A DNA stretch of 5,747 nucleotides. Source: a virus. A program made the position numbers and the translations under genes. This document shows positions 1 to 5,747 of the stretch, in pieces (position 1 is the first letter of the stretch; each line of letters starts with the position of its first letter). The stretch spans positions 1 to 5,747 of IMG/VR virus record IMGVR_UViG_3300045988_000087. One strand, given 5' to 3'. Under the pieces are notes generated by a model. The model was not told the DNA's origin. It saw nothing but the letters and a program-made list of their open reading frames with translations, and did not search any database.

Positions 1-97
1 GTTTTTTTGGTTTGAATGGCGCTTTAGCGCCTTGCCGTGTGGAGCGCAAGCGGAACTCGGCTAATCCATTCATTGTAAGCGCTGTGCGCGTTTTCAA
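1..97. repeat. Terminal direct repeat, left copy (assembly or linearisation overlap of a circular molecule)
   Basis: Bases 1..97 match 5651..5747 exactly when compared base by base. Confidence 0.97.
18..31. other. Mini-hairpin GGCGC-TTTA-GCGCC
   Basis: 5-bp GC stem with a TTTA loop. The core CGCTTTAGCG recurs at 225..234. Confidence 0.6.
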
Positions 98-203
98 CAC
101 TTTCAACACTTTCAACAGGTTTTCAACAAAATGTTGCACAATGATTTTAGTCATTTTGACGAACTTTCAACAATTCAACAAGTTTTCAACAAATCTTTCA
201 ACA
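92..203 (+). repeat. Iteron-like array: 8 same-orientation copies of TTCAACA, 7 of them extended to TTTCAACA
   Basis: Heptamer starts are at 93, 102, 111, 122, 166, 174, 185 and 197. The first three copies are a 9-bp tandem (TTTCAACAC/TTTCAACAC/TTTCAACAG). A degenerate copy TTCAACT lies at 251..257 and an inverted partial copy TGTTGCA at 132..138. Confidence 0.9.
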
Positions 204-223
204 GTGCTTTTTGCTTTTTATTT

Positions 224-235
224 ACGCTTTAGCGT
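224..235. other. Mini-hairpin ACGC-TTTA-GCGT
   Basis: 4-bp stem with the same TTTA loop and the same CGCTTTAGCG core as 18..31. It lies on the opposite flank of the heptamer array. Confidence 0.55.
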
Positions 236-340
236 TATATTTTAGTACTTTTCAACTTTTCCACTGTCTCTACTACTACTCCTACAACAAGTTAATATTT
301 TACAACGCTTGTGAGCTTGCGAACAACAGCGTTGAAGAAG

Positions 341-2410: not shown

Positions 2411-4099
2411 TTACAGTTTGTACAAGCCCGGTACGCTGTATAACGGCATCCGTCTCGTGGTTTTGTTTGCTACACGGATTGCTCCGAAAAATTGCGGTTC
2501 ATTTTCTACGATGAGTGTGCGTGCAATTTCTGCTTTTCCTTCTGCCATCCATCCCTGTGATAGTGTCGGCACGGTTGAATATTTGTCAGCATAGTGCCAA
2601 AAATCCAGCGTTCCTGTTGCGTTGCTTCTCATTTTGCCGGATACTCTGTTTGGCTTCATTCTGTAGTCTGCCCATGCTTCTTGATATCCAAACGTCTCTT
2701 CGTCTTTTTCCGTGCCGGTGAGCATGATTTCTTTCTTTTTTACAGGTTGTTCACCTAAGTTTGCGAGCTGAGGTACATAATAGTCAAGTCTGTCGAGCCG
2801 GCTCCAGAAACGTTCCAGGCCTTGCTGATAGCTGTGATTGTGTCGTACACAACATACTCCGATTACAAAGCCGTGCTCCTCGAAAGATTTTGTAAAACTG
2901 TTTTCATTGATTGGTGTCACTGATACTGCACCGGTTTCACCAATAGGTGTGTTAGTGTTGTCCTGCTGTCCGCTTGTCTGCACAATCTGATTGATATTGA
3001 CGTGATATCTGCCGCCGCCAAGGTATTCCGGGATTTGTACAGTTTTATCAGAGATTACCACATCCCATAGTGCCTGTACCTGTTCGCGGTAACGGCTGCC
3101 GCCTCTTGCCAGTGCCTCGTAGTATTGCTGTACTGCCACGGCTTTTCGCAATTCGTTAATTGTCGTTGCGGTTACTCTGCTAAGGTCTGCACCTAAGAAG
3201 GCCGTATCGTTTACTTGACTTGTCGAATCTGAACTGCCTGTTACTAGCGCATATCCTTTGTGGTCTGCGTTTCGACTGTTGCCGATATTTGGCGCAAGTG
3301 CGTTTCCGCTTAGCGTCTGGTTCAAGTAGATTTCCATGTGTCCACCTACCGTTCCAAACTCTGTTAGCTGTGTGTTTTTATACATTCCAACCGGTGCGTT
3401 ACCATCTAACGGCAATGTAACTTCCGGCCCGCGCTGAGGGTACGGCAGACAGCTTGAGAAGTAGTCATGGAACTTGTTTACCGGTAAGCATCTGCCACCG
3501 TTTATTGCTTTCATTAAGATTTTGTCTGTTTCGATTTCGCCTTCGCCGCCGTCTTGATAAACTACGTTTGCATCATCGGTTTTGATGGTTGCTGCATTAT
3601 CTACATTTTCATCTCTGAAAAATTCATTCCAGATTTTTACATATGCTCGGATTGGCAGTGCGTTTGCTTTAAAAACGTTTTCAATTTTCGTTGGGATTCC
3701 CATGTAATCCAGTATTGATCCTTCATACGGCTGCGGATTATCTTTTTTGCCGTTAATGACGATGTTGGGCACTTTATATTCTTTTTTCGGCATCCATGGC
3801 GTTGCCTCTACTTCTCCCATAAACTGCCTGAAATTATCCCATATGATTCGATTTGGACAATAGAAGTAATAGAAGTCAATGAATGCATCATCCATCACCG
3901 GATACTTCGGCGTGGTCATTCTGATGATTGCTGACGTGTTCACGTTAAACGTGTCGCCCGGCAATACTTCGTCCACGTAAAATGGAATCAGTTTGCCGGA
4001 ATCAAACGTTGTTAGAATAGTCTGGTCGCGGTTGAATCGTGTTCGACTTGCTTTCATTTCTGGAATTTGGTTGAAGTGCCGTTCGTTGTTTCGGCTCAT
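2411..4099 (-). CDS. Major capsid protein VP1 (phiX174 F-like jelly-roll capsid)
   Basis: 562-aa ORF. The N-terminus FNQIPEMKASRTRFNRDQTILTTFDSGKLIPFYVDEVLPGDTF...FIDFYYFYCPNRIIWDNF is the canonical Microviridae capsid signature. The Shine-Dalgarno site is GAGGAGGAAGAAAAATG. The start overlaps the VP3 stop as ATGA. Confidence 0.96.
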   Translation of the reverse strand: MSRNNERHFNQIPEMKASRTRFNRDQTILTTFDSGKLIPFYVDEVLPGDTFNVNTSAIIRMTTPKYPVMDDAFIDFYYFYCPNRIIWDNFRQFMGEVEATPWMPKKEYKVPNIVINGKKDNPQPYEGSILDYMGIPTKIENVFKANALPIRAYVKIWNEFFRDENVDNAATIKTDDANVVYQDGGEGEIETDKILMKAINGGRCLPVNKFHDYFSSCLPYPQRGPEVTLPLDGNAPVGMYKNTQLTEFGTVGGHMEIYLNQTLSGNALAPNIGNSRNADHKGYALVTGSSDSTSQVNDTAFLGADLSRVTATTINELRKAVAVQQYYEALARGGSRYREQVQALWDVVISDKTVQIPEYLGGGRYHVNINQIVQTSGQQDNTNTPIGETGAVSVTPINENSFTKSFEEHGFVIGVCCVRHNHSYQQGLERFWSRLDRLDYYVPQLANLGEQPVKKKEIMLTGTEKDEETFGYQEAWADYRMKPNRVSGKMRSNATGTLDFWHYADKYSTVPTLSQGWMAEGKAEIARTLIVENEPQFFGAIRVANKTTRRMPLYSVPGLYKL

Positions 4100-5204: not shown

Positions 5205-5594
5205 TTATACCCCCTTTCTGTATTTTTGGGTGCGTGTGTCGATGTGTACCCATGTGTTATATACGATTATGCCGCATTCATACGGAATTATTTTATTCAG
5301 TTTGTCGGCAATTTCTTTTGCGGTCATGCCATTGATCCGTATGTCTGCCGCCATTCCTCGCATGTGGTATGAGTATTTAGCACCGCCCACTTCTTTATTC
5401 CTTGTCGGTGTCCGGTATCCACTGTTGATGATTACAGGCTTTCCGACCTGGTTTCTGAGGATGTCTAGGATTGACACTAAGTAACTGTCTATAAAAACCA
5501 CCTGTGACCCATCTTTGCAAGCAAATTCTTTTACTTTGAAGTGTTGCCCTACTTTTTCGTTTGCGTCTGTGTCCATGATATAGCTTTTTATCAT
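5205..5594 (-). CDS. Zinc D,D- or L,D-peptidase of the M15 family (Peptidase_M15_3-like peptidoglycan hydrolase); putative endolysin
   Basis: 129 aa from MIKSYIMDTD. It carries the signature FKVKEFACKDG...INSGYRTPTRNKEVGGAKYSYHMRGMAADI...WVHIDTR, giving the H-x6-D and C-terminal H-x-D zinc ligands of M15A/VanY-type peptidases. I chose the start at 5594 because GAGGGGG lies 4 nt upstream and a consensus promoter lies about 25-55 nt upstream. The upstream open frame runs through that promoter. Confidence 0.85.
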   Translation of the reverse strand: MIKSYIMDTDANEKVGQHFKVKEFACKDGSQVVFIDSYLVSILDILRNQVGKPVIINSGYRTPTRNKEVGGAKYSYHMRGMAADIRINGMTAKEIADKLNKIIPYECGIIVYNTWVHIDTRTQKYRKGV

Positions 5595-5619
5595 CTTGCC
5601 CCCTCGCTTTCTATTGTCG

Positions 5620-5648
5620 ATTGTACCATATATTTTACCGCATGTCAA
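5620..5648 (-). promoter_or_regulatory. Near-consensus sigma70/SigA-type promoter with extended -10
   Basis: In the minus sense: TTGACA (5648..5643), a 17-nt spacer TGCGGTAAAATATATGG, then TACAAT (5625..5620). The spacer ends in TGG, giving a TGn extended -10. The promoter lies just upstream of the first gene's Shine-Dalgarno site. Confidence 0.7.
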
Positions 5649-5650
5649 CT

Positions 5651-5747
5651 GTTTTTTTGGTTTGAATGGCGCTTTAGCGCCTTGCCGTGTGGAGCGCAAG
5701 CGGAACTCGGCTAATCCATTCATTGTAAGCGCTGTGCGCGTTTTCAA
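5651..5747. repeat. Terminal direct repeat, right copy
   Basis: Identical to 1..97. Confidence 0.97.

Follow-up and report, generated by a model that had tools for sequence, protein, structure and literature searches.

A putative DnaA-box and DnaA-trio module of bacterial-origin type beside the replication gene of gut gokushoviruses

Introduction

Microviridae are the textbook case of rolling-circle initiation by a phage-encoded protein, with host DnaA not used. To our knowledge, no origin has been mapped for any gokushovirus, though these phages are among the most abundant gut viruses. We analyzed IMG/VR virus record IMGVR_UViG_3300045988_000087 over its whole length of 5,747 nt, referred to here as the window, and asked what is the function of a dense array of TTCAACA repeats that lies close to its start. 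The window contains a gokushovirus genome that is circular, complete, and 5,650 nt long, plus a 97-nt terminal overlap in which positions 1–97 are repeated exactly at 5651–5747. A sequence-only reading of the window had proposed that the repeats are iterons bound by the viral replication initiator, VP4, or else a stack of promoter-like sites.

We found that the TTCAACA array is the upstream part of a module of about 215 nt (91–305) and not a free-standing iteron array. This module is probably an oriC-like, DnaA-dependent duplex-opening element that acts on the replicative form, and its TTTCAACA repeats would then be DnaA boxes of a variant type, with TTTTCAACA in place of TTATCCACA. The best explanation of its sequence is that it copies the core at which a bacterial chromosome origin unwinds, of the type found at dnaA-dnaN in gut Oscillospiraceae/Ruminococcaceae. 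The module is thus best explained as a known kind of element, a DnaA-box/DnaA-trio module, in an unexpected genomic context, a lineage of gut gokushoviruses.

Structure of the repeat array and module

The heptamer TTCAACA occurs eight times on the plus strand, starting at 93, 102, 111, 122, 166, 174, 185, and 197 (span 93–203), and is found nowhere else on either strand of the 5,650-nt genome. Dinucleotide-shuffled sequences contained 1.17 copies on average and at most 4, and none of 200 shuffles reached eight. Beyond a 9-bp tandem of the first three copies, the intervals measure 11, 8, 11, and 12 nt, except for 44 nt between the copies at 122 and 166. The exact count and the shuffles confirm what the sequence-only reading had described, namely eight repeats in one orientation with these spacings, confined to the array. 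That reading had also ended the element at 257, whereas it extends through GTCT and (CTA)3-CTC-CTA to about 305. The parts that were overlooked, just past the coordinates it had noted, are a proximal box pair, a (CTA)n run, and an AT-rich segment. The full layout consists of two clusters of four boxes, the tandem proximal pair, a 4-nt gap, five CTA-type trinucleotides, and an AT-rich stretch.

Distal cluster A (91–128, plus strand) comprises TTTTCAACA at 91–99, CTTTCAACA at 100–108 and again at 109–117, and TTTTCAACA at 120–128, with periods of 9, 9, and 11. We propose that these 9-mers are DnaA boxes of the TTTTCAACA variant. In most relatives with aligned modules, the slot at 120–128 holds TTTTCCACA. 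We note that the box at 91–99 straddles the end of the 97-nt repeat, and that the array begins at this artificial junction. Positions 132–138 had been read as an inverted partial copy of the repeat, but they are better described as part of a forward box-like 9-mer, TGTTGCACA (132–140, plus strand), one mismatch from the classical consensus TTWTNCACA. TTGCACA is kept in this slot in 26 of 26 aligned modules.

The spacer between the box clusters contains a small palindrome, GTCATTTTGAC (150–160), which is replaced in the viruses that we call class II (below) by GTCAAAATGAC, with identical arms and an inverted center. Distal cluster B (164–203, plus strand) comprises CTTTCAACA at 164–172, AATTCAACA at 172–180, TTTTCAACA at 183–191, and CTTTCAACA at 195–203, with periods of 8, 11, and 12. 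The slot at 183–191 holds TTATCCACA, the perfect and highest-affinity DnaA box, in seven relatives and TTTTCCACA in two. Downstream of cluster B, an AT-rich spacer (204–248) holds a mini-palindrome, ACGCTTTAGCGT, at 224–235. The arms of this palindrome change together in a compensatory manner among relatives (ACGC/GCGT, ACGT/ACGT, and GCGT/ACGC), and its central CG columns are invariant.

The proximal tandem pair (249–265, plus strand), with clusters A and B 46–178 nt upstream of it, consists of TTTTCAACT at 249–257 and TTTTCCACT at 257–265, offset by 8 bp from start to start. These boxes differ from TTATCCACA by three and two mismatches, respectively, and relatives carry TTTTCCACA in the pair. 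The earlier description of 251–257 as a degenerate ninth copy was right in seeing a repeat there but not in treating it as a lone copy, as it opens this pair. Four nucleotides, GTCT (266–269), separate the proximal box from the first trio; relatives and bacterial origins have CCCC, GCCC, or CTCC in this gap. The run that follows, CTA CTA CTA CTC CTA (270–284, plus strand), has the complement 3'-GAT GAT GAT GAG GAT-5', which is five triplets of the DnaA-trio type, and its plus strand contains four overlapping 5'-TnnT-3' motifs of the DnaD-recognition-element type. A run of at least three CTA is found only here in the genome of the window, counting either strand.

The segment at 285–305 is 81% A+T and is a candidate unwinding element. 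Directly after the CTA run, the 10-mer CAACAAGTTA (285–294) is nearly invariant in both virus classes and missing from bacterial dnaA-dnaN origins. Lying in the presumed unwinding region, it could be a recognition site for VP4 or another viral protein. Overall, there are about 11 boxes per genome, and the module (85–310) folds no better than shuffled sequences on either strand (z = +0.44 and +0.27).

One relative, L233 (IMG/VR 3300045988_000092), carries a tandem duplication of about 60 nt that covers the AT-rich spacer and proximal pair (two copies of ...cgtttcatcgttaaaatttattacttttcaacttttccacagtc...). The module therefore evolves through local duplication.

Conservation and orientation in related viruses

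We looked for relatives of the module with a whole-genome megablast against GenBank phages, a sensitive search with positions 60–320, and a three-copy pattern scan of IMG/VR. Several gokushoviruses (H23–H29) that were otherwise unalignable matched the array region only in the megablast. The search with 60–320 returned 44 records, all of them gut Microviridae/Gokushovirinae (from human, pig, monkey, dog, mink, and raccoon), and the pattern scan added about 40 microvirus-sized contigs. Three copies were needed in the pattern because a two-copy scan of viral contigs gave mostly single chance matches. By these comparisons, the module is among the most conserved DNA of a lineage whose VP1 and VP4 have diverged to 38%–50% identity.

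Across 36 related genomes, forward TTCAACA occurred 267 times in the 300-nt modules (24.7 per kb) and inverted TTCAACA not once, compared with 19 copies on both strands of the remainder of these genomes (0.10 per kb). The array thus survives a comparison of motif density across whole genomes, as the sequence-only reading had asked, and also the question of whether it is absent from relatives, as the module is kept in about 40 related gut microviruses. In 26 aligned modules, the shared architecture was cluster A with three or four boxes, a spacer of about 35 nt, cluster B with four boxes, an AT-rich spacer of about 45 nt, the tandem proximal pair, the 4-nt gap, (CTA)3–6, CAACAAGTTA, and AT-rich DNA. 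The boxes are positionally homologous in these modules, and single slots toggle among TTTTCAACA, TTTTCCACA, and TTATCCACA. Inverted TGTGGAAAA copies are also present in modules. Among forward TTNNACA 7-mers in 33 distinct modules, TTCAACA was counted 245 times, TTCCACA 29 times, and TTGCACA 25 times. The trio run is equally regular: 37 of 39 related genomes had exactly one run of at least three CTA on either strand, always at this position, and 28 of those relatives had a box within two mismatches of TTATCCACA located 4–12 nt upstream of it.

The module occurs in two orientations relative to the genes. In class I, with VP4 at least 45% identical to that of the window, the array runs antisense to the genes, directly beyond the VP4 stop. 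Class II comprises eight genomes (L123, L124, L137, L176, L184, L202, L224, and L236) with VP4 about 38% identical, in which the coding strand carries the module, between VP2 and the start of VP4. This difference rules out a simple stack of promoter elements. In both arrangements, the module adjoins the VP4 gene, and its AT-rich end faces the VP4 side.

Neither a box cluster nor a trio run was found in the classical gokushoviruses Chp2, phiMH2K, and SpV4. Some of the retrieved non-microvirus viral contigs have TTCAACA arrays (mostly tandem repeats, on large contigs), and none of these had a box followed by a run of at least three CTA. The module is apparently not ancestral.

Comparison with known origins

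In the basal unwinding system (BUS) of bacterial origins, a co-oriented pair of DnaA boxes stands about 4 bp from a series of three or more DnaA-trios (3'-GAT-5'), beyond which lies an AT-rich region, and a distal box assists (Richardson 2016/2019; Pelliciari 2021, PMC8287927; PMC6669920). Its published criteria are a better box with at most two mismatches, another with at most four, boxes no more than 3 bp apart, and trios 0–16 bp away (PMC8287927; PMC6669920). A trio is any 3'-NAN-5' triplet, with 3'-GAT-5' as the consensus. In the window, TTTTCCACT and TTTTCAACT are co-oriented and abut or overlap by 1 nt, and five triplets, four of them GAT on the complement, begin after the 4-nt gap. The A+T content and position of 285–305 and the presence of clusters A and B upstream also agree with this system. 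So does polarity, since the box in the TTATCCACA sense and 5'-CTA-3' downstream of it lie on one strand, as in the B. subtilis oligonucleotides and in C. difficile oriC2. Location is where the agreement ends: a BUS belongs to a chromosome origin, typically beside dnaA, and this element lies between the VP4 and M15 peptidase genes of a microvirus. We therefore file it as an element that would work like a BUS, not as a chromosomal oriC.

The top strand of the B. subtilis scaffold reads 5'-TTATCCACA-AATCCACA-GGCC-CTA CTA TTA CTT CTA CTA-3' (PMC8287927). Its counterpart in the window reads TTTTCAAC-TTTTCCACT-GTCT-CTA CTA CTA CTC CTA, followed by the AT-rich segment. DnaA-box#6 and DnaA-box#7 of B. 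subtilis incC (TTATCCACA/AAATCCACA) have the same 8-bp offset as the phage proximal pair, and the two elements are further alike in their 4-nt gap, at least three CTA triplets on the box strand, AT-rich DNA downstream, and distal boxes upstream. They differ in that the phage element resides in a 5.65-kb single-stranded DNA (ssDNA) phage and does not adjoin dnaA, and in that its boxes are mostly TTTTCAACA instead of TTATCCACA and are far more numerous, denser, and co-oriented in two clusters of four. In C. difficile oriC2, three DnaA boxes stand directly ahead of the trio run 5'-CACCTACTACTATTACTACTATGA-3', and a DNA unwinding element follows it (PMC7561715). The phage module resembles this origin in the trio run, the upstream boxes, and the candidate unwinding element downstream, and differs from its canonical boxes and chromosomal context.

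Mobile elements offer another comparison. The plasmid and phage origins P1 oriR, pSC101, and RK2 oriV have DnaA boxes beside the sites of their own initiators. In these, as is proposed for the phage, a mobile element recruits host DnaA via boxes next to an AT-rich region. However, they replicate in the theta mode, keep separate iterons for an initiator that the plasmid encodes, and usually have one to five DnaA boxes, whereas we saw no second repeat family in the phage, which encodes a rolling-circle HUH initiator and has DnaA-trios.

Bacterial counterparts and predicted host

The same arrangement was found in bacterial chromosomes. We scanned 185,579 bacterial genomes for three TTTCAACA copies with gaps of at most 30 nt, which gave at least 120 loci of up to 8 kb each. 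VP1 and VP4 were absent from all of the 120 listed loci, and none of these loci was viral. Eleven of the 120 contained dnaA, compared with about 0.3 expected (Poisson P ~7e-14). In nine of the 11 (L237, L264, L271, L281, L299, L301, L322, L324, and L356), the array lies immediately downstream of dnaA and is co-oriented with it. All nine are labeled Oscillospiraceae, Ruminococcus, Anaerofilum, or Eubacteriales, mostly from gut metagenomes, with the taxonomy being that of the metagenome-assembled genomes. In six of the nine, the array is followed by (C/G)CCC-(CTA)3–5, AT-rich DNA, and a downstream gene, and Pfam identified DnaA and DnaN on either side of the array in the two loci tested. For example, L264 reads ...agttTTCAACAgtTTCAACA-cccc-CTACTACTACTACTA-aacatatata, and L281 reads ...ttttccactgtTTCAACA-gccc-CTACTACTACTACTA-ttatatattt, then dnaN.

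A profile hidden Markov model built from the viral modules gave dnaA-dnaN regions as its top bacterial matches, with E-values of 1e-14 to 5e-8 over about 200 nt in the same orientation, and it matched seven of the nine loci over about 200 nt. The A:C ratio at box position 6 was 88:12 versus 84:16 in the comparison of viruses and bacteria, and the spacing modes (9 and 11 bp) and orientation bias also agreed. The dnaA-dnaN origins of gut Oscillospiraceae, Ruminococcus, and Anaerofilum share their box variant, composition, spacing, and orientation bias with the phage. They differ in their spacers, which are not clearly homologous, and in lacking the CAACAAGTTA that follows the viral trios. We also observed that some of these bacterial arrays are far denser than textbook origins, with at least 16 TTCAACA copies in 300 nt of L299 (1642–1943) and several clusters over about 900 nt of L271 (6728–7610).

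The variant box has a precedent. A DoriC-derived table lists AAAAGTTGT, the complement of TTTTCAACA, as the species-specific DnaA box of Chlamydophila pneumoniae AR39 (PMC8287927 supplement). Chlamydiae are classical hosts of gokushoviruses, yet Chlamydia phage Chp2 (L357) has no box cluster.

We aligned the DnaA proteins of these loci to structures 8BTG, 1J1V, and 3PVP. At all 11 loci (the nine above plus L251 and L294), DnaA has RDHST where E. coli, B. subtilis, and M. tuberculosis have RDHTT. None of the 11 proteins keeps P423, and a Y stands at the H439 position in nine of nine Oscillospirales proteins and in the one from Bacilli. We take R399, P423, D433, H434, T435, and H439 to be the base-contacting residues in the E. 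coli DnaA-DNA complex, and this numbering is consistent with the 1J1V sequence. RDHST..Y together with the loss of P423 may mark a DnaA specificity that goes with the TTTTCAACA box; we regard this as a lead, and not as proof, that DnaA of this clade reads a variant box.

From the box and trio sequences, the host of this phage is predicted to be a gut member of Oscillospirales. In a gut virus catalogue, the hosts predicted for gut Microviridae are most often Firmicutes. We also considered a host call from the M15 endolysin of the phage and rejected it; its relatives (35%–47% identity) are in Vibrio, Enterobacteria, and Bacteroides phages and one Faecalibacterium phage, and because they are scattered across phages of Gram-negative hosts, Bacteroides, and one Faecalibacterium phage, the protein carries no host signal.

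Genome setting and neighboring structured segment

Every gene of the gokushovirus genome is on the minus strand. These are the M15 (M15_3) peptidase/endolysin (~5597–5205), a 98-aa open reading frame, VP5/ORF5 (a homologue of 'DNA binding protein'), the VP3 scaffold, the VP1 capsid (4099–2411), the VP2 pilot (2372–1503), and the VP4 replication initiator (1506–487). The array sits in the sole long intergenic region (5598–5650 plus 1–486), between the VP4 stop and the peptidase start. We note that the phage carries an M15_3 peptidase/endolysin (5205–5597, minus strand) and not just a small lysis protein.

Next to the module, positions 300–490 are highly structured (z = -7.47 for folding against shuffles). 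A hairpin at 303–334 adjoins the module outside the box array, as does a GC-rich alternating purine-pyrimidine near-palindrome at 337–383 (CGCGCGTGCGCGCGTGCGCG / CGCGCGCGTGCGCACGCGCG). The near-palindrome is present in many class I genomes and missing in L096, L146, L134, L164, and L217. Its possible roles are to limit the unwinding, to adopt a cruciform or Z-DNA structure, or to function on the single strand.

Closest to VP4, an element on the minus strand at 443–485 contains a perfect 13-bp hairpin (443–476) with the loop CTATCAAGTAA on the coding strand and TTACTTGATAG on the plus strand, then GGTGACACC and the VP4 stop. This hairpin shows compensatory stem changes and a conserved loop, followed by GTGACAC, in every class I genome. 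Homologues of the element are at the corresponding position in about 29 class I and seven class II genomes. In class II, a hairpin comes after the reverse complement, GTGTCA; these genomes have GGTGTCAAC and a hairpin with the loop ATAGACAAGGAAG directly ahead of the VP4 ATG. Relative to the genes, the hairpin element is oriented alike in both classes, whereas the box module flips; the AT-rich end of the module faces the hairpin in both, at a distance of 33–230 nt.

The hairpin loop (457–464) contains ACTTGATA, conserved in class I on the non-coding strand, while class II loops have CAAGATAGACAAGG. We take ACTTGATA to be the nick-site core of phiX174 and pC194. The 30-nt phiX174 origin (CAACTTG^ATATTAATAAC...) has no repeat array and does not need DnaA. 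It shares ACTTGATA with the phage hairpin loop, but in the phage this hairpin is 240 nt from the array and the motif is on the non-coding strand. In an origin of the phiX174 type, the conserved nick sequence is on the packaged strand, in the coding sense. CTTGATA occurs five times on the plus strand (398–404, 458–464, 738–744, 2680–2686, and 3553–3559) and never on the minus strand, compared with a mean of 0.73 in shuffles, of which two of 200 reached five. A second copy, CTACTTGATAGACTGAATAG, is at 396–415 and recurs in some relatives. The element at 443–485 could be a strand-specific viral element, such as a nick site, single-strand origin, or terminator. We read the intergenic region as bipartite, with a duplex-acting, orientation-free module of the host-initiator type and this candidate strand-specific viral element.

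Alternative explanations

The alternative that fares best is that the module is a DnaA decoy or regulator, which binds DnaA without opening the DNA, so that titration stalls host initiation or the level of DnaA regulates phage transcription. The E. coli datA locus and B. subtilis DnaA-box clusters titrate DnaA, and about 11 boxes on each copy of a multicopy replicative form would suit such a role. The evidence that the repeats are DnaA boxes serves this explanation as well as ours, and the position of the module, with the last gene of the transcription unit on one side and its first gene on the other, would suit a regulator. However, a pure sink needs neither a proximal pair 4 nt from (CTA)n nor an AT-rich segment. 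It is less likely because the trios, fixed gap, and AT-rich segment are the most invariant parts across both virus classes and bacterial origins, and we consider the decoy or regulator unlikely.

If the repeats were instead iterons for VP4, as in iteron plasmids and CRESS-DNA viruses, they would bind the viral rolling-circle initiator. The module does always adjoin the VP4 gene, a conserved hairpin with a potential nick site is nearby, and the phage repeats resemble plasmid and CRESS-DNA iterons in being short, direct, about one helical turn apart, and near a replication gene. But such iterons co-vary with their Rep and are specific to each element, whereas the TTCAACA/TTCCACA boxes stay constant with VP4 proteins 38%–97% identical to that of the window. 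The sequence-only reading had suggested looking for co-variation of the motif with VP4, and the alignment of relatives revealed none. The boxes, spacing, and trios also recur in bacterial chromosome origins that have no VP4, and the module flips relative to both VP4 and the hairpin. The sole conserved hairpin is thus not a fixed flank of the repeats, as it lies 33–230 nt from the module and its orientation relative to the module differs between classes. We know of no phiX-type Rep protein that uses iterons, which also counts against this idea. What stood of the earlier proposal is a conserved, non-coding, same-orientation array of a protein-binding type that is tied to origin function; the binder and role that it named did not, and Rep-binding iterons are very improbable. 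We favor host DnaA over the viral Rep because the motif is constant across VP4 proteins and matches the boxes at bacterial dnaA-dnaN.

Another DNA-binding protein could occupy the repeats, such as Spo0A, a response regulator of the OmpR/PhoP/WalR type, or the phage's own VP5. TGTTGAA is one mismatch from what we take to be the Spo0A 0A box, TGTCGAA; spacings of 9–12 bp suit response regulators that bind direct repeats; and the genome encodes the ORF5 homologue. Yet every slot variant shifts toward the DnaA consensus, and the bacterial context is a dnaA-dnaN origin with trios, in genomes that have no VP5. For Spo0A in particular, TTCGACA/TGTCGAA was not found once in 33 distinct modules, and we rejected it. 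There is only a very small chance that a protein of this group is the binder.

A single-strand function fares slightly worse still. The repeats or (CTA)n would here be a complementary-strand origin, for instance a primase start on packaged ssDNA. Firmicute primases start synthesis at 5'-CTA-3', as seen in the stimulation of the C. difficile enzyme at d(CTA), and ssDNA phages require a priming signal. The module nevertheless has no excess of ssDNA structure on either strand, the structured part being 300–490. Because CTA is on the coding strand in class II and on the non-coding strand in class I, a role on the single packaged strand fails for the two classes together, and we give this explanation little credence.

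The least credible alternative is that the repeats precede the first gene as stacked -35-like promoter elements or sites for RNA polymerase. It draws on the TTGAAA contained in TGTTGAAA and on the fact that the array, read in the coding sense, comes before the M15 peptidase gene, but we rejected a sigma-70-type promoter cluster, as a scan for -35/-10 hexamers at 16–18 nt spacing gave one weak match (nine of 12 positions) against 0.6 by chance and the class II array has the opposite orientation to its downstream gene.

Proposed mechanism

A DnaA-dependent opening element is thus the explanation that we carry forward. We interpret it as acting on duplex DNA because the module is unstructured as ssDNA and is found in both orientations relative to the genes. 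While the replicative form is double-stranded, host DnaA-ATP would fill the proximal pair and both distal clusters. Starting at the proximal pair, it would then oligomerize along the DnaA-trio strand, (TAG)n. The adjacent AT-rich segment (285–305) would then melt, and the displaced (CTA)n strand would present its TnnT motifs to DnaD. More speculatively, the opened duplex may be an entry for the host helicase-loading machinery, allowing theta-type amplification or maintenance of the replicative form, and/or the opening may expose the neighboring hairpin, or help to extrude it, for the viral Rep VP4.

Several observations weigh against this explanation. The classical consensus TTWTNCACA, with at most one mismatch, matches 17 sites genome-wide against 14 expected, and the density of such boxes in the module of the window, five per 260 nt, equals the shuffle maximum and is not significant alone. 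Since the classical consensus alone is not enriched, the DnaA assignment rests on comparative and contextual evidence. The A at position 6 of the bacterial boxes is partly there by construction, because the loci were selected for TTTTCAACA-type repeats, and the spread of bacterial taxa is that among the matches listed. That an Oscillospiraceae DnaA binds and unwinds the module is something we infer, and boxes 8 bp apart may not all be occupied simultaneously. The M15 endolysin does not indicate a Firmicute host. Finally, phiX-type microviruses replicate without DnaA. As the module is also missing from Chp2, phiMH2K, and SpV4, a need for DnaA would be an innovation of this lineage.

Implications for gut gokushoviruses

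In the full-text literature on DnaA, DnaA box, iteron, and oriC, we found no prior description of this element in Microviridae or gokushoviruses, which bears out the earlier suggestion that it is a cis-element undescribed for this virus family. Work on DnaA-trios and bacteriophages likewise did not seem relevant, judging by titles and abstracts. An oriC-type element in about 40 gut microviruses would be a testable candidate for the opening of the replicative form. It suggests that these phages either depend on the initiation machinery of the host (DnaA and, in Firmicutes, DnaD) or manipulate it, and it offers a sequence-based prediction of host, gut Oscillospiraceae/Ruminococcaceae, for phages with no cultured host. 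The TTTTCAACA box is also an apparently uncharacterized DnaA-box variant, seen alongside a distinctive DNA-reading signature of DnaA (RDHST..Y, P423 loss).

A bolder possibility, which we hold only tentatively and think doubtful, is that gut gokushoviruses have captured a working host-origin core, giving them a DnaA-dependent, theta-type mini-replicon alongside VP4 rolling-circle replication. If so, the box variant and trios would report the host clade (Oscillospirales) from phage DNA. Such a replicon would also amount to a carrier state like that of a plasmid, coupled to the cell cycle of the host, and this could be why Microviridae persist in the gut over the long term.

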